A DNA stretch of 38,347 nt from the IMG/VR virus record IMGVR_UViG_3300025646_000006, one strand, 5' to 3'. A program made the translations under genes and the position numbers. Source of the stretch: a virus. Under the pieces are notes generated by a model that saw nothing but the letters and a program-made list of their open reading frames with translations, was not told the DNA's origin and searched no databases. Below are positions 7,292 to 14,573 of this stretch, piece after piece. Position 1 is the stretch's first letter. Each line of letters starts with the position of its first letter.

Positions 7292-8164
7292 TTACGAGGT
7301 GCCGCGAATGTTGAACTCAATCCGGTCTTCTTTGGTTGCTTTGTTAATGCGGCGGACTGGGGTAATTTCAAACTCAATCCACCCGAGAGCGCAAGGACTT
7401 CTTGCGGCATCTACGTTATAAGACACGCGACCGTTCTCGTAAGCCTTGAGGAATGAACCCGTGCGGCCAAGCCAAGGCGTCCGCTCGCGGACAGTAAGCT
7501 CTGGGTTCTTCCCGCCAGAGACAAGCGTCAGGCGCGGGGACGATGGGATACAACCTTTCTTGTGGTCGTGGCCCATCAGATAAAAGTCAGCGTCAGCAGA
7601 TTGCTGCATCTTCTCTAACGTATTAAACGTAGAACCGGGGAGCGTGCCGCCGCCCTTACCGTGATGCGCGAAAATGTCGAGGGACTGGCGTTGCGTGCGG
7701 CCCTTGAACCGAAGGCTAAGACGGATGAACGAGCACACGCCGAGGAACTTGGTTTGCAAGTAAGCCGCAAGCATATGGTCAGTCGTGTCGCCGTTATCGA
7801 AAGCGAAGTAATGATTGCCACCGAGCAGCCCGATGCACCGCCCACGCATGAAGTCTAGCTCGTTAGCGAGGGTCTTCATCACGCCTTTGTAAACGCCGTC
7901 AAGCGTCCGCTTAGTCGTGTCGTGCATCCCAGTATCGCTAAGGATGATGCGCTCCGAGGTAGATACGCCGTCAGAGTAATCGCCCATGCCGAGGAACACT
8001 GCGTTCTTCTGCTGCTTGGCGTAGTCCAGGAACTCGGACCAATGCTCGTCAGCGTGCATATCAGAGTCGCGGTGAATGTCTCCGAAAGGGATGAGCTTAA
8101 ACGGCTTCCCTGTTTCTACTTCGATTTCCACGCGATGCGTGGTGAACAGTCCTGTGGTTTTCAC
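7292..8164 (-). CDS. Calcineurin-like metallophosphoesterase (phosphatase or SbcD/Mre11-like nuclease family)
   Basis: Ordered motifs are present: GDIHRD, GMGDYSDG, GGNHYF, HHGKGGG, GHDHKK. The GTG start overlaps the upstream TGA (GTGA at 8161-8164). Confidence 0.75.
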   Translation of the reverse strand: MKTTGLFTTHRVEIEVETGKPFKLIPFGDIHRDSDMHADEHWSEFLDYAKQQKNAVFLGMGDYSDGVSTSERIILSDTGMHDTTKRTLDGVYKGVMKTLANELDFMRGRCIGLLGGNHYFAFDNGDTTDHMLAAYLQTKFLGVCSFIRLSLRFKGRTQRQSLDIFAHHGKGGGTLPGSTFNTLEKMQQSADADFYLMGHDHKKGCIPSSPRLTLVSGGKNPELTVRERTPWLGRTGSFLKAYENGRVSYNVDAARSPCALGWIEFEITPVRRINKATKEDRIEFNIRGTS

Positions 8165-8502
8165 TTAGCTTCCTTTTGCTTGTGGTTATATCTGTGCAAG
8201 ATTGTCTTACAGGTGCCGATTGGGATACCTAGCTCATTGGACACTTGCCAGTAAGACAGCCCAGAAAGTCGAAGCCTGATTACGTCTTGTTGCAGGTCAA
8301 AAGCCCGCTGGCGGTTAGCCGAGCGAACCGTCTTTTTTTGGGGGTCTGGGAACGTAGCGTGCTTGGCAACAACGCCGCGAGGTTGAATCAGCGTGCGGTA
8401 GTCAACGTGTCGCCCGGTAGAGTCTTCGTCTGTCGGCTTGTATTTCTCCAGCAAATGCTGGATGGCCCGAGAGGATTCGCAAATGCGGTTGCCTTCAAAC
8501 AT
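8161..8502 (-). CDS. Small helix-turn-helix DNA-binding protein (sigma region-4 / LuxR-like C-terminus)
   Basis: The C-terminal segment LRLSGLSYWQVSNELGIPIGTCKTILHRYN looks like an HTH. The track start at 8529 is TTG; the in-frame ATG at 8502 is preferred. Confidence 0.5.
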   Translation of the reverse strand: MFEGNRICESSRAIQHLLEKYKPTDEDSTGRHVDYRTLIQPRGVVAKHATFPDPQKKTVRSANRQRAFDLQQDVIRLRLSGLSYWQVSNELGIPIGTCKTILHRYNHKQKEAK

Positions 8503-8680
8503 CGTCGGCTTCTTTCGTGTAGTCCGCAACCTGAGCGAGCAAGACGAGAGCCTCTGCCCCCACCTTCATCCGCTCAAGGCTTTTGAAAAAGGCGACCTCA
8601 TCGCCGTCTCGGTATGCTTCCTCGGCATCCCGAAGCAGCGCGTTAGTCACTTGTTTGATTTGCTCGTTAGTATCTTTCAT
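8495..8680 (-). CDS. Hypothetical protein (61 aa, acidic, helical)
   Basis: ATG ORF packed between the HNH and HTH genes with short overlaps on both sides. Confidence 0.4.
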   Translation of the reverse strand: MKDTNEQIKQVTNALLRDAEEAYRDGDEVAFFKSLERMKVGAEALVLLAQVADYTKEADDV

Positions 8681-8972
8681 TTGTAATCCTCAAAATCCAG
8701 TTGTTTTCCTCGGCCCAGGCTGGGTTGTTATGAATATAGTTATGGCAAAAGCGGCAGACTGCAACGAAAATCGTCGTGTCGCATAGCTTCCCGCCGCGCC
8801 CCAAGGGGAGACGGTGATGAATGTCTATTGCTTTGTTCGTTTCGCATATCTCACAGATAGGTCTTTTCTTTATATGGCCGCTCTTGAGCTTGCGGTATTC
8901 CTTTAGTTCTTCGGCACGCTTAGACGACACGCGGTTAAGCGGTGTCTTACGTTTCAGCGGTGAGCGTTTCAT
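8667..8972 (-). CDS. HNH endonuclease
   Basis: CEICETNKAIDIHHRLPLGRGG...CRFCHNYIHNNP gives the Cys pairs plus the HNH His/Asn pattern. The ATG at 8972 overlaps the methyltransferase stop (ATGA), so it is preferred over the track start at 8990. Confidence 0.8.
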   Translation of the reverse strand: MKRSPLKRKTPLNRVSSKRAEELKEYRKLKSGHIKKRPICEICETNKAIDIHHRLPLGRGGKLCDTTIFVAVCRFCHNYIHNNPAWAEENNWILRITNERY

Positions 8973-9828
8973 TTTGATAGAAGTTCCCATGCGAGTGCAG
9001 CCACCGCCGGGACTTGTCCGTTTCCAATGGCTTTAAGTCTGTCCACCCTAGCGGCCACCCCATTAGCCACTCGACCCACACCGGATTTAGGGGCATCGGC
9101 CGGGTCGGTTGTCCACCATGCGCCTGACTGGTTAGAGTTGGGGTTTTCCGAGTAAATTCTGCTGGATATGCTGCCTCCTTTGCATTGTGACACGTTGGCG
9201 TCGCCCACTCTTTTTTGCGTGATTTCTTTAATTTCGGTCGGGTCGGATACCCGCGAATCCTTGGGTGATTGTTGAGTCCCACTTGTCCATAGTTGGCGCA
9301 AGCTGGAATCTTTGTTGCCTCGGCTACTGTTGGCGTCGGCCATGGTTCCGACAATCCACATCCTGTCCCGCTTATGAGGTGCTCCGGCATGGTGCGCTCC
9401 GAGCACTCCCCATCGCGCATCATACCCCATTTCGGCAAGGTCTTTGAGAACCGTTGCGAGTCCTCTTGTTCTGAGCAAAGGACTGTTTTCGATGAAAGCA
9501 AATCTTGGTCGAACCTCACCAATAATCCGCGCCATGTGCCGCCACATTCCGCTGCGACTTCCTTCGATTCCTGCGCCTTTTCCTGCGGAGCTGATGTCTT
9601 GGCAGGGAAATCCTCCAGAAACGACATCAACACGGCCTCGCCATGGTCGTCCATCAAAGGTTTGAACGTCATCCCAAATTGGGAAAGGCGGGAGAACGCC
9701 TTCATTTTGTCGGGCGCACAATACGCTTGCGGGATAAGGTTCCCACTCGACGGCGCAGACTGTTCTCCATCCAAGGAGTTTGCCTCCAAGTATTCCTCCA
9801 CCAGCACCTGCGAATAAAGCCAGCTCAT
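8947..9828 (-). CDS. Alternative-frame ORF (293 codons) covering the whole methyltransferase gene; possible overprinted gene
   Basis: Stop-free on the same strand, in the +1 frame relative to the MTase. Its ATG is 4 nt downstream of the MTase ATG (ATGAATG). The translation contains WPTPTVAEATK, WATPTCHNAKE and LNPVWVEWLMGWPLGWTDL. See findings. Confidence 0.3.
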   Translation of the reverse strand: MSWLYSQVLVEEYLEANSLDGEQSAPSSGNLIPQAYCAPDKMKAFSRLSQFGMTFKPLMDDHGEAVLMSFLEDFPAKTSAPQEKAQESKEVAAECGGTWRGLLVRFDQDLLSSKTVLCSEQEDSQRFSKTLPKWGMMRDGECSERTMPEHLISGTGCGLSEPWPTPTVAEATKIPACANYGQVGLNNHPRIRGYPTRPKLKKSRKKEWATPTCHNAKEAAYPAEFTRKTPTLTSQAHGGQPTRPMPLNPVWVEWLMGWPLGWTDLKPLETDKSRRWLHSHGNFYQNETLTAET

Positions 9829-12709: not shown

Positions 12710-12913
12710 TGGATTCCTTTATTTGTTGTTGTTGCTTACCGAAAATCAAATTCCAGTTCGCCTCGAATTGAGCGCGAGGGATGGAGAGTGGTCTAGATTT
12801 GTCTCCCTTACCGTTCATGTTTATCTTTAGGTTTAAATTTTACCGGGTATTTTCGCACCGCCCCGGCTGGCGTCGTTGGCCCTTCGGCAGATGGCTCTGC
12901 TTGAAAGTAATGG

Positions 12914-13084
12914 TTAATTGTAATCGGAACCTTCACCGTCACCGTTACCGAAGCCGGAACCGTGACCGCTACCGTTACCGTAACCGTCACCGCCACCGTA
13001 ACCGTAACCGTAACCGTAACCGTCACCGGAACCGGAAGCGTAACCGGAACCATAACCGTAACTGGAACCGTAATCGTAAATCAC
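12914..13084 (-). CDS. Hidden GTG-initiated Gly/Tyr/Ser-rich acidic repeat peptide (56 aa)
   Basis: My translation: (M)IYDYGSSYGYGSGYASGSGDGYGYGYGYGGGDGYGNGSGHGSGFGNGDGEGSDYN, TAA at 12914-12916. The GTG overlaps the upstream TGA (GTGA at 13081-13084), the same arrangement as at 8161-8164 and 28864-28867. It is below the 60-aa cut-off of the track. The reading frame is uncertain because the repeat leaves other frames open. Confidence 0.4.
   Translation of the reverse strand: MIYDYGSSYGYGSGYASGSGDGYGYGYGYGGGDGYGNGSGHGSGFGNGDGEGSDYN
12926..13078. repeat. Degenerate hexanucleotide repeat (ACCGTN)n, including perfect (ACCGTA)4 at 12995-13018
   Basis: Read directly. The period-6 pattern ACC-GTA/GTC/GTT/GGA runs for about 150 nt and leaves most of the six reading frames open across the repeat. 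Confidence 0.9.
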
Positions 13085-13452
13085 TCCGTCCATTCGACAA
13101 CCTCCGCAATAGACTTTTTGGCCTTTTCGGTTACGGGAATAATTTCACAGATTCCGATAACCTCAATCTCGGCAACCTCGCCGGGGAACTTGCACTCTTT
13201 AGGATTACTGGTCCCTTTTGTTGCAAGGTCGGTAAGCTCTGCGGCCCCCGCCCATCGCCAGATTCGTCGGCTATTGACCAGTGTAACGCTAGTCTCTGAA
13301 TTTCTGGTCTTCAGATAACCGGCGTGACAGCCGGAGTCTCGGCTACGCACAATGACATAAGGAAGGCCGTCGCTATCGGTCGCTTTAGAAATGGAATCCG
13401 CACGAACGTATTCCACGTCGTCAATCTTAATTGAGTTTGGTTTGGTATTCAT
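13081..13452 (-). CDS. Hypothetical protein (123 aa)
   Basis: ATG ORF overlapping the endonuclease VII 3' end by 26 nt. It contains VIVRSRDSGCHAGYL...NSRRIWRWAGAAELTDLA, which resembles a conserved phage family of unknown function (from memory). Confidence 0.5.
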   Translation of the reverse strand: MNTKPNSIKIDDVEYVRADSISKATDSDGLPYVIVRSRDSGCHAGYLKTRNSETSVTLVNSRRIWRWAGAAELTDLATKGTSNPKECKFPGEVAEIEVIGICEIIPVTEKAKKSIAEVVEWTE

Positions 13453-13864
13453 ATTTTTTTTTAACCTTCTTGGCTCGTTTCCGTTTCAATCGGGCTTTCT
13501 TGTTCCTTGCAATCTTTTTTTCTGACAAAGTTTTGTGCATCGGGTGCGTGTCTGATTGTGAGTAATCCTTGGATACATAATCAGCAAGGCGGCGAAGGCA
13601 CTCGGCGTAATCGGCTTTAGTCTTAGCCAGTCCGACGCGGACAAACGCATTGCGAACCTTCCCCTCCCATGCGTTACACTTACGGTCTAAGACTCCGCGA
13701 ACTTTCCCGGTCTTGTGGTCGTGATCTAGGCACGGAACCTCAATCGGTAATCCTGTAATCGGGTCAATCCCTTCTTGTTGTTTAAGGAGAGAAGCCCTTA
13801 CCGTAGGGATGTCTTTAGTTTTAAGTTTCAATGTTCCCACTCCGACGTAGTTTTTTAGTATCAT
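13427..13864 (-). CDS. Recombination endonuclease VII (Holliday-junction resolvase)
   Basis: CLDHDHKTGKVRGVLDRKCNAWEGKV matches the Endonuclease_7 signature DHDHxTGxxRGxLxxxCN. Basic C-terminal tail. Confidence 0.75.
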   Translation of the reverse strand: MILKNYVGVGTLKLKTKDIPTVRASLLKQQEGIDPITGLPIEVPCLDHDHKTGKVRGVLDRKCNAWEGKVRNAFVRVGLAKTKADYAECLRRLADYVSKDYSQSDTHPMHKTLSEKKIARNKKARLKRKRAKKVKKKYEYQTKLN

Positions 13865-13897
13865 AACGAGCGCGGCCCTTCAATGGGGCCGCTCGTT
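13865..13897 (-). promoter_or_regulatory. GC-rich hairpin ending at the base directly before the endonuclease VII ATG (candidate translational occlusion element)
   Basis: Minus strand reads AACGAGC-GGCCC-cauugaa-GGGCC-(gc)-GCUCGUU followed directly by AUG. That is 12 bp with a 2-nt bulge and no U tract. Confidence 0.5.
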
Positions 13898-14215
13898 GAG
13901 AGGTTTAAGGAGATTCGGTTTCCGCTCTAACGTGTTCTAGTTTCATCGACTCCAAAATGGTGGGTTAGTCAAGGCACAATTCACCCGTTGCCGGATGGAC
14001 TGTGCCTGTTTCAAAGTCTCCAAAAAGTTCGGAAGCCTAAGACACGACCGGGATACTGCACGGCATCTGACACTTTTCAGCAGGGTCATCTCTGACCATC
14101 CCCGGAATCCCCCCTTGCGGGGCAATTATTAAGCAGGCTTGTGAAACCTGCACCGTTGTCCTCGTCTACTACCGAGGCCCATCTGACCCTAACGCTGCGG
14201 GGTCTGCGGAGGGCT
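13898..14215 (-). ncRNA. Candidate structured RNA or long structured leader (class unknown)
   Basis: About 320 nt with no convincing ORF. Minus-strand hairpins are capped by GNRA loops: CCCC-GCAA-GGGG (14111-14122), GGUCA-GAGA-UGACC (14084-14097), and AGGCACA/CAUCCG-GCAA-CGGGUG/UGUGCCU (13972-14007). A three-way junction is closed by CCGGGGAU/AUCCCGG (14048-14105). Direct repeats UUUUGGAG-N4-UGAAAC flank the long hairpin. Confidence 0.35.
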
Positions 14216-14252
14216 AAATAAAAAGCCCCCAGTGGGCAAGTCACTGAGGGCT
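14216..14252 (-). terminator. Rho-independent terminator
   Basis: Minus strand reads AGCCC(U)CAGUG-acuugcc-CACUG(G)GGGCU followed by UUUUUAUUU. Confidence 0.65.
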
Positions 14253-14312
14253 TCGCCCCTTGCGGGGGCTTGGGATAAACTCCCAAAAGTCTTCAACGGC
14301 TTGCCCACCGTT
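14218..14312 (-). ncRNA. Candidate ~95-nt small RNA or attenuator bounded by its own promoter and terminator
   Basis: An extended -10 promoter lies about 7 nt upstream of 14312. Four consecutive hairpins follow: CAACGG/CCGUUG, UUGGGA/UCCCAA, CCCC-GCAA-GGGG, then the terminator. No ORF. Confidence 0.4.
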
Positions 14313-14318
14313 GCAAGC

Positions 14319-14327
14319 ATTATAGCA
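14319..14327 (-). promoter_or_regulatory. Extended -10 promoter element TGcTATAAT (minus strand)
   Basis: Plus-strand attatagca is TGCTATAAT on the minus strand, just after the stop of ORF 14334..14573. No good -35, as is usual for extended -10 promoters. Confidence 0.5.
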
Positions 14328-14333
14328 CAGGTT

Positions 14334-14573
14334 TCAGCTTGAAATAGAACTTTCTTCAGGCACCTTCCCAAGCTGGTGGCCTTCAAGAATTTCCGTAATT
14401 CTTTTTTCCAAGGTAGCCTCGTAACCTGCGTTCATCAGCTCGGCCACCCACTCGGCGGCGGACTCGCTCCAGAGGGTAGCGATCTGCCAGTTACCTTGCC
14501 AGACTGCCCATTGCGGTTCGTTCTCCTCGGCGTTCTTGGCCGGGGCGACGGTGAATTTCTGTGTGTTTTTCAT
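14334..14573 (-). CDS. Hypothetical protein (79 aa, acidic, Trp-rich)
   Basis: ATG ORF in the early arm. Confidence 0.5.
   Translation of the reverse strand: MKNTQKFTVAPAKNAEENEPQWAVWQGNWQIATLWSESAAEWVAELMNAGYEATLEKRITEILEGHQLGKVPEESSISS

Follow-up and report, generated by a model that had tools for sequence, protein, structure and literature searches.

A conserved candidate structured RNA and a putative separable promoter-terminator unit in an intergenic gap of an uncultured aquatic phage

The IMG/VR virus record IMGVR_UViG_3300025646_000006, a stretch of 38,347 nucleotides (nt) referred to here as the window, represents an uncultured aquatic phage. A non-coding stretch of ~350 nt in it folds into a set of RNA helices. 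It lies in a gap of 469-471 nt between a 79-amino-acid (aa) gene and an endonuclease VII (EndoVII) gene, both on the minus strand, and the gap is without a convincing open reading frame (ORF). We consider it reasonably probable that this gap holds two separable minus-strand non-coding modules, a promoter-terminator unit and a structured RNA cassette, and that the cassette is accessory and trans-acting. The presence of a functional structured RNA as such is held with high confidence, and its narrower assignment as a trans-acting accessory RNA is tentative. As judged from sequence comparison, the core of the cassette is a minus-sense RNA fold under strong purifying selection, carried as cargo in a variable slot. 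The original prediction, made on positions 13898-14215, had proposed a folded RNA there. The unit is larger than that span, with a promoter, hairpins and a terminator upstream and an invariant 3' hairpin (13897-13865) downstream.

The core comprises a 5' two-helix domain, two hairpins, a GNRA hairpin, a three-way junction, a long GNRA hairpin and a twin motif; three of its hairpins are GNRA-capped. The helices and motifs that had been named beforehand were all located on the minus strand at the coordinates given for them, both on the sequence and on the helix map. The parts of the cassette were as follows.

13940-14216, minus strand: conserved structured core RNA of 277 nt with ~10 helices, predicted from conservation, covariation, G.U strand bias and the lack of a kept ORF
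~14177-14160, minus strand: hairpin CCUCG-GUAGUAGA-CGAGG
14151-14133, minus strand: hairpin H7, GCAGG(U)-UUCACAA-(G)CCUGC
14106-14127, minus strand: hairpin AAUU-G-CCCC-GNRA-GGGG-G-GAUU with an invariant stem (CCCC-GCAA-GGGG at 14122-14111)
14048-14105, minus strand: three-way junction with the closing stem CCGGG(GAU)/(AU)CCCGG
14097-14084, minus strand: GNRA arm of the junction, GGUCA-GAGA-UGACC, with three pairs swapped in homologs
within 14048-14105, minus strand: second arm of the junction, UGCUG...CAGUA, which encloses an invariant 19-nt loop and is itself invariant, leaving no covariation to judge it by
13972-14007, minus strand: long hairpin AGGCACA-GUC-CAUCCG-GCAA-CGGGUG-AAU-UGUGCCU of 15 bp with a C.A mismatch and a GCAA loop
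14008-14025, minus strand: twin motif copy 1, UUUUGGAGACUUUGAAAC, invariant save for one N4 position
13940-13957, minus strand: twin motif copy 2, UUUUGGAGUCGAUGAAAC, differing only in relative L089, by 2 nt
13898-13939, minus strand: variable linker with 68% identity and a 17-nt deletion in L089
13865-13897, minus strand: GC-rich 3' hairpin AACGAGCGGCCC-CAUUGAA-GGGCCGCGCUCGUU, 100% identical in relatives L020, L021 and L025 and without a good U-run

About 100 core nucleotides were unpaired yet nearly invariant. The ends of the cassette look discrete, with a variable linker followed by an invariant 3' hairpin, which is probably the 3' boundary or a protective hairpin. As a side observation, the 7-nt loop of H7 (14133-14151, minus strand), (C/U)UCACAA, resembles an anticodon loop in outline, with U in second position followed by CAC and purines; this may be coincidental.

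Related loci were compared to assess the fold. The phage itself was present in ~20 metagenome contigs, in all of which the gap was 100% identical and uninformative for comparison. More distant relatives were obtained through EndoVII homolog look-ups (L020, L021, L025, L022 and L024), and scanning the metagenome collection by pattern yielded four more, L088, L089, L092 and L093. Alignment A2 comprised nine sequences, eight of them distinct; L089 was the most diverged relative with 86% identity over the gap. Compared with L020, L021 and L025, the core (14216-13940) showed 96.8-98.2% identity, the block of promoter, 5' hairpins and terminator 87%, the linker (13939-13898) 68% and the 3' hairpin (13897-13865) 100%. 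The EndoVII gene reached 89-91% and the 79-aa gene, which is largely replaced in L025, 81-83%. The remaining replication module had ~82% identity. The core was far more conserved than the neighbouring genes. Block identities this unequal within one contiguous stretch argue for selection and not for recent transfer. An element without any function of its own would be a GC-rich spacer with incidental hairpins, its high identity a legacy of recent horizontal transfer. The region is mosaic and the folding energy of the core is not significant, as this explanation would expect, but a single recent transfer would not give 87%, 97-98%, 68% and 100% identity in one cassette, and the observed changes preserve pairing and GNRA loops. 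We regard a functionless spacer as very improbable.

The helices were kept with compensatory and wobble changes, which bears out the earlier proposal of a folded RNA rather than a spacer. The junction arm GGUCA-GAGA-UGACC was replaced by GCGUA-GCAA-UACGC in L092/L093 and by GCGUA-GAAA-UACGC in L089. One pair of the junction closing stem passed from C-G to U.G in L020 and to U-A in L089. In the long hairpin, the apical pair changed from G-C to A-U in L089 and a C-G pair to U.G in L021. The loop of the CCCC/GGGG hairpin was GCAA, GCGA, GAAA or GAGA across homologs, a GNRA loop every time, and all three varying tetraloops remained GNRA. Over the 116 modelled pairs, 99.0% of cells were canonical. 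Seven pairs were changed on both sides, against 2.4 +/- 1.2 in shuffled alignments, where 1 of 500 reached seven; when partners were slid by 1-3 columns as a control, only 0-1 pairs were changed on both sides. The strand test gave 94 G.U cells in 17 pairs and 2 A.C cells, which identifies the selected fold as that of the minus-strand transcript. An exhaustive column-pair search for pseudoknots was also run; among only eight sequences, any change confined to one lineage covaries with all else. An nhmmer search with the alignment returned one copy per genome and nothing new.

Three ORFs of 60-66 aa, with non-ATG starts or lying across the hairpins, had been listed for the region. They exist and start with TTG, and 40-86-aa ORFs are open in several frames. 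Stop-free frames are common in this GC-rich region, and none on either strand survives in all homologs. In L092/L093, the loop of the long hairpin has lost 1 nt, which truncates the sense 60-aa ORF; in L022, 1 nt is inserted, which disrupts both this ORF and an antisense 45-aa ORF. The genes on either side had a strongly negative AT skew, the core one near 0. No gene was called in this region in the source databases, and neither period-3 nor ORF conservation was found in the homologous regions. Protein-like conservation and loss of the helices were two of the outcomes that had been named as refuting an RNA, and the homologs showed neither. A remaining coding scenario involves the 60-66-aa ORFs, the antisense 45-aa ORF or mini-ORFs starting at the GGAG-N3-UUG/AUG motifs, which resemble a Shine-Dalgarno (SD) sequence and start codon followed by AAA. 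Mini-ORFs startable at the twin motifs vary in length and sequence between homologs, the two indels shift or truncate every candidate, substitutions track pairing and not codons, and the real genes of the phage mostly lack SD sequences. Encoded small proteins are scarcely credible on this evidence, and the core is classed as non-coding from its sequence comparisons. The absence of SD sequences from most phage genes also led to the dropping of an SD or ribosome-decoy idea for the twin motif.

Known RNA families were searched with Rfam 15 (4227 models). At the gathering threshold, the whole window yielded only a tRNA-Thr, 7 kb from the element. For positions 13700-14500 at E <= 10, four weak matches were obtained, all far under threshold. 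These results agree with the original prediction in that the class is unknown and group I intron or tRNA-like features are missing: no family matched, a group I intron gave no match even at E <= 10, and each flanking ORF is a complete gene by itself, start and stop included. An omega-RNA of the IscB/TnpB kind (HEARO-type, RF02033) is not indicated either, as no HEARO match was found, the neighbour is a 134-aa Endonuclease_7 protein in place of an RNA-guided nuclease (RuvC with or without HNH, ~400 aa or more), and the linkage to it is broken in L022. A blastn search in distant mode with the 1.2-kb region gave no match in the phage GenBank set. Single-protein, alignment-based and DNA-pattern scans of IMG/VR returned no relative, only unrelated tandem repeats. 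We describe the RNA as an orphan, clade-restricted and previously undescribed structured non-coding RNA; it is novel as a family, and nothing shows novelty as a kind.

The recurring motifs that had drawn attention to the region were of unequal weight. The sequence UUUUGGAG-N4-UGAAAC has exactly two occurrences in 38 kb, both in the element and 68 nt apart, and 0.36 matches with <=2 mismatches were expected by chance. It forms the centre of a 32-nt imperfect direct repeat. By contrast, the double occurrence of GUCAGAUG and the triple occurrence of CAACGG were at chance level for ~470 nt, for which we estimate ~1.6 repeated 8-mer pairs and a chance of ~0.9 that some 6-mer occurs three times. The twin segments could be read as the 3' ends (...UUGGAG-N4-UGAAAC) of two CRISPR repeats ~68 nt apart around a spacer, that is, as a mini-array or an RNA anti-CRISPR. 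The 68-nt period is within the CRISPR range, and a genome scan with the twin motif matched real CRISPR arrays whose repeats end in CCTTGGAGGGATTGAAAC; this resemblance, however, follows from the pattern that was searched for. At ~63% identity over 30 nt, the two 'repeats' fall short of the near-identical ones of a mini-array or solitary repeat, and the 'spacer' is the conserved hairpin with compensatory changes. The top permissive Rfam match was CRISPR-DR57, on the plus strand at 14249-14280, which scored 23 bits (E = 0.015) where the threshold is 39. It was rejected as a chance match, since it lies on the strand opposite to the element and the matching stem changes sequence in relatives. Taken together, a CRISPR-like element is most improbable.

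The same scan of GTDB genomes gave 51 matches, none of them homologous; they fell on CRISPR arrays, palindromes of Bacteroidota resembling repetitive extragenic palindromes (REP) and coding repeats. Two metagenome-assembled genomes of Bacteroidota/Chitinophagales contained many dispersed and tandem copies of the palindrome CGTTTGGAGGGTTTGAAACCCTCCAAACG, which is REP- or terminator-like and unrelated to the RNA (loci L038, L041-L044, L047, L049, L058, L059, L061, L066, L069, L071, L075 and L084).

The cassette is not tied to its present neighbour. It had been placed between the terminator and the EndoVII gene, which holds in the window. In L022 and L024, however, the RNA and EndoVII lie apart, with ~1.6 kb of other DNA in between; homology ends exactly at the end of the 3' hairpin, and the RNA is still ~94% identical. 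The inserted segment (L022:1821-3454, present also in L024) carries a 63-aa ORF and overlapping 130-190-aa ORFs on both strands without a Pfam match. In L025, most of the upstream 79-aa gene is replaced. In L101, the sequence past ...UUUUAGCCCUCCGCAC is unrelated to the core. In L100, a promoter and a terminator of its own precede a 94-aa HTH_36 or replication-initiator-like gene (L100:1464-1748; phrog_270, E = 2e-11), which fills the slot that the RNA has in the window phage. EndoVII loci at 55-74% aa identity had no such gap and no element, and the gap in L033 was an uncalled gene. The other cargo in L101 and L100, the insertion in L022/L024 and the gapless distant EndoVII loci indicate that the core with its 3' hairpin is cargo in a variable slot and not an appendage of EndoVII.

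The same loci bear on a cis-acting role. The RNA might be the 5' untranslated leader of a middle recombination/replication operon and control stability, processing or translation of the next gene; in a variant of this, a phage protein, for instance EndoVII, would bind it as an operator, the three-way junction resembling the branched substrate of the enzyme. Co-oriented genes always follow the RNA directly, the distance from its end to the EndoVII start is 34 nt in seven of nine homologs, and it sits just past a terminator at the early/middle boundary. In phage T4, gene 49, which encodes EndoVII, is reportedly controlled by an upstream RNA hairpin, a precedent for such a leader. In addition, candidate RNA structures preceding resolvase and RusA genes have come out of phage surveys (PMC10690425). 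Against this stand the 1.6-kb insertion that parts an RNA still ~94% identical from EndoVII and the EndoVII homologs at 55-74% identity without RNA. The linker to the 3' hairpin is variable, with a 17-nt deletion, which argues against a precise switch, and ~280 constrained nt far exceed the needs of known operators. The features of a riboswitch or cis leader were not found, as the downstream gene differs in L022/L024, the terminator is upstream of the core and the linker varies. A cis-acting leader is therefore a minor, if real, possibility.

Upstream of the core, the second module was resolved into the following parts.

14319-14327, minus strand: putative extended -10 promoter TGCTATAAT, with a likely transcription start near 14312
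14255-14313, minus strand: three short 5' hairpins with compensatory changes, retained in L101
14313-14294, minus strand: 5' hairpin 1, CAACGG-loop-CCGUUG, with a G-C pair changed to A-U in L089
14284-14272, minus strand: 5' hairpin 2, GGGA-GUUUA-UCCC
14269-14255, minus strand: 5' hairpin 3, GCCCC(C)-GCAA-GGGGC, with CCCC/GGGG changed to CCUC/GAGG in homologs
14213-14254, minus strand: 13-bp terminator-like helix (14254-14222) and U-rich tail, marking the early/middle boundary

Only two TGNTATAAT sites are present in the window, and one is the extended -10 element at 14319-14327. Its TG-TATRAT was kept in every homolog, including L100 and L101, while adjacent bases varied, which is consistent with promoter activity. 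For hairpin 1, RNAalifold had proposed a long-range CCGUUG/CAACGG pairing; the compensatory change in L089 suits the local hairpin better. The terminator, expected near 14216 by the original prediction, was found as a 13-bp stem including seven G-C pairs followed by TTTTTATTT, the GC-rich stem and U-run of an intrinsic terminator. It is the strongest terminator-like site within 6-21 kb, the leftward early region. Its basal pair covaries among homologs (G-C, G.U or A-U). Termination may be only partly efficient, because the U-run is interrupted in four of nine homologs. The whole unit is kept in L101 (L101:430-560), which lacks the core RNA, and L100 (L100:1315-1450) has an analogous arrangement of different sequence. 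Promoter, three hairpins and terminator (14213-14327, minus strand) would yield a small RNA (sRNA) of ~95 nt. The unit could be an sRNA gene, a regulated terminator like that of the lambda 6S RNA or a PeSL-like (promoter early stem-loop) recombination cassette.

A replication origin was weighed as another function of the region. The element could act through a transcript forming an R-loop or primer (like ColE1 RNA II or T4 oriF/oriG) or as DNA bound by replication proteins, and would stand in for a protein initiator. Its position within the replication/recombination module, downstream of a strong promoter, would suit this, as would its two 32-nt direct repeats. Among the phage genes, none for an RNA polymerase, a DNA polymerase, a primase or an initiator was recognised, and the slot in L100 holds the HTH_36 or initiator-like gene; as a variable slot can hold anything, the argument from L100 is weak. 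The hallmarks of an iteron- or DnaA-type origin were not seen, with two repeat copies only, no DnaA-box cluster and, at a GC content of 0.49-0.59, no AT-rich unwinding region. Selection acts on RNA pairing, with G.U tolerated on one strand, and the closely related L101 seems to be without the core. For an RNA-primed origin, the arguments are positional only. An origin is considered improbable.

For the favoured reading of an accessory, trans-acting RNA, the following course of events is proposed. Two sources of the transcript are envisaged, the extended -10 promoter and the early promoters near 19.5 kb, and from either of them the polymerase would have to read through the terminator as early expression gives way to middle. 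The invariant 3' hairpin would set or protect its 3' end, and the RNA would work in trans as a discrete folded molecule. Because ~100 unpaired nucleotides are nearly invariant, sequence-specific recognition of a partner or dense tertiary contacts are suggested. A specific protein or RNA partner may be bound through the 19-nt loop in the junction and through both copies of UUUUGGAG-N4-UGAAAC, one on each side of the rigid 15-bp hairpin. The sporadic presence among close relatives points to an accessory role, and the RNA might serve as a moron-like fitness, host-interaction or counter-defence factor and not as an essential replication or regulatory element. A specifically anti-defence role is quite unlikely.

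Several points weigh against this reading. The MFE (minimum free energy) z-scores of the core were unremarkable, with -1.49 on the minus and -1.42 on the plus strand; therefore, the single sequence alone does not establish a structured RNA, and the proof comes from the related sequences. The folding energy of the whole gap was exceptional (z = -4.96), a signal driven by the 5' hairpins and the terminator. The eight distinct sequences belong to one narrow clade, in which many column pairs covary through shared ancestry. Helices H6, H11-H13 and H15-16 are invariant, so that covariation neither supports nor contradicts them. By inspection, no sigma-70-like promoter lies between terminator and core, and expression of the core would hence depend on read-through. 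Transcription, terminator read-through and a stable RNA species are all predicted from sequence, and any partner is putative. The constant presence of co-oriented genes after the RNA also fits a cis role.

Among bacteria and phages, few RNAs of ~300 nt have many constrained unpaired nucleotides, and the ones with solved structures are ribozymes, ribonucleoprotein scaffolds or self-assembling cages. The core might found a new class of tertiary-folded phage RNA with its own biochemical activity (a ribozyme, a self-assembling ornate RNA or a decoy against host defence), borne on a mobile cassette and switched on as early expression passes into middle; we judge this unlikely. The GOLLD and ROOL RNAs (PMC12286853) resemble the core in being non-coding, phage-carried, multi-helical with GNRA-type loops, strongly conserved, of unknown function and without a fixed neighbour gene. 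However, their Rfam models (RF01998, RF03087) did not match, and they measure ~580-800 nt compared with ~280-350 nt here. They often lie near tRNA genes, whereas the closest tRNA is 7 kb away from this RNA, whose distribution is very narrow. GOLLD and ROOL form multimeric cages, whereas multimers of this RNA would be conjectural. The phi29 pRNA (RF00044) is likewise encoded by a phage, measures a few hundred nt, centres on a three-way junction and has an early promoter of its own. It differs in that the present RNA had no Rfam match, the phage has a conventional large terminase, and no interlocking-loop complementarity was found. Candidates from a viral-metagenome survey (PMC10690425) are also intergenic, supported by covariation and from uncultured tailed phages, a likeness by description only. 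Our RNA is probably not in that set, since its clade was not found in the IMG/VR scans.

Two systems are comparable, to the 5' module only. The PeSL cassettes of T4-type phages (PMC2839356, PMC4122927) share with this module a promoter and stem-loop/terminator bordering a slot with differing cargo. Order and sequence are unrelated, the unit occurs here in one copy per genome, and a recombination role is putative. The lambda pR'-6S RNA-tR' unit is similar in that later genes are preceded by a strong promoter, a short structured RNA and a strong terminator. In contrast to lambda and HK022, no Q- or N-like protein was identified and neither boxA/boxB (nut) nor put was matched. Unlike HK022 put or lambda nut, the core cannot be a terminator-suppressing element, because it is downstream of the terminator.

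The two genes enclosing the gap were defined as follows.

14334-14573, minus strand: 79-aa gene of unknown function, upstream of the element
13427-13831, minus strand: EndoVII gene (PF02945, Pfam E = 8e-12) with its start revised to TTG 13831

Homologs of EndoVII comprise 129-135 aa and open with MKLKTKDIP (from ATG in L022, from TTG in L089). For this reason, ATG 13864 is probably the wrong start and TTG 13831, with GGAG 8 nt upstream, the true one, a correction to the original account. The phage of ~38 kb encodes an SU10-type capsid protein and a large terminase. Further recognised genes were a DnaB-like helicase, a PD-(D/E)XK nuclease, an SbcD-like exonuclease, DUF1599, EndoVII and methyltransferase-like proteins; the closest helicase of a cultured phage showed 27% identity. 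Sigma-70-like early promoters were located near 19.5 and 19.0 kb, and the element is placed where a run of small early ORFs ends and the recombination/replication genes begin. Instead of SD sequences, most genes have A/C-rich leaders (e.g. ...aaaaaacc AUG), which hints at a host with SD-independent initiation. The Bacteroidota-type promoter motif TAnnTTTG was not enriched. Elsewhere in the window, a 122-aa protein (8161-8529, minus strand) with a sigma-70 region-4-like helix-turn-helix under the Pfam cut-off may be a late regulator and adjoins a 107-aa HNH endonuclease (8667-8990, minus strand). Low-complexity repeats at 12781-13318 contain overlapping ORFs in several frames (VTVTVT..., GYGYGSG..., RNRNRN...); the ORF called differs among near-identical strains (59 aa vs 81 aa), and this may be a hypervariable repeat gene.

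Candidate structured RNAs from surveys number in the thousands (PMC10690425). If the RNA is only a leader or stabiliser, it would be one more orphan motif among them, and interest would rise sharply if an activity or partner was found. With sharp module boundaries, constraint above that of the neighbouring proteins and natural genomes with and without the cassette, the locus would offer a tractable entry to the function of accessory phage RNAs.

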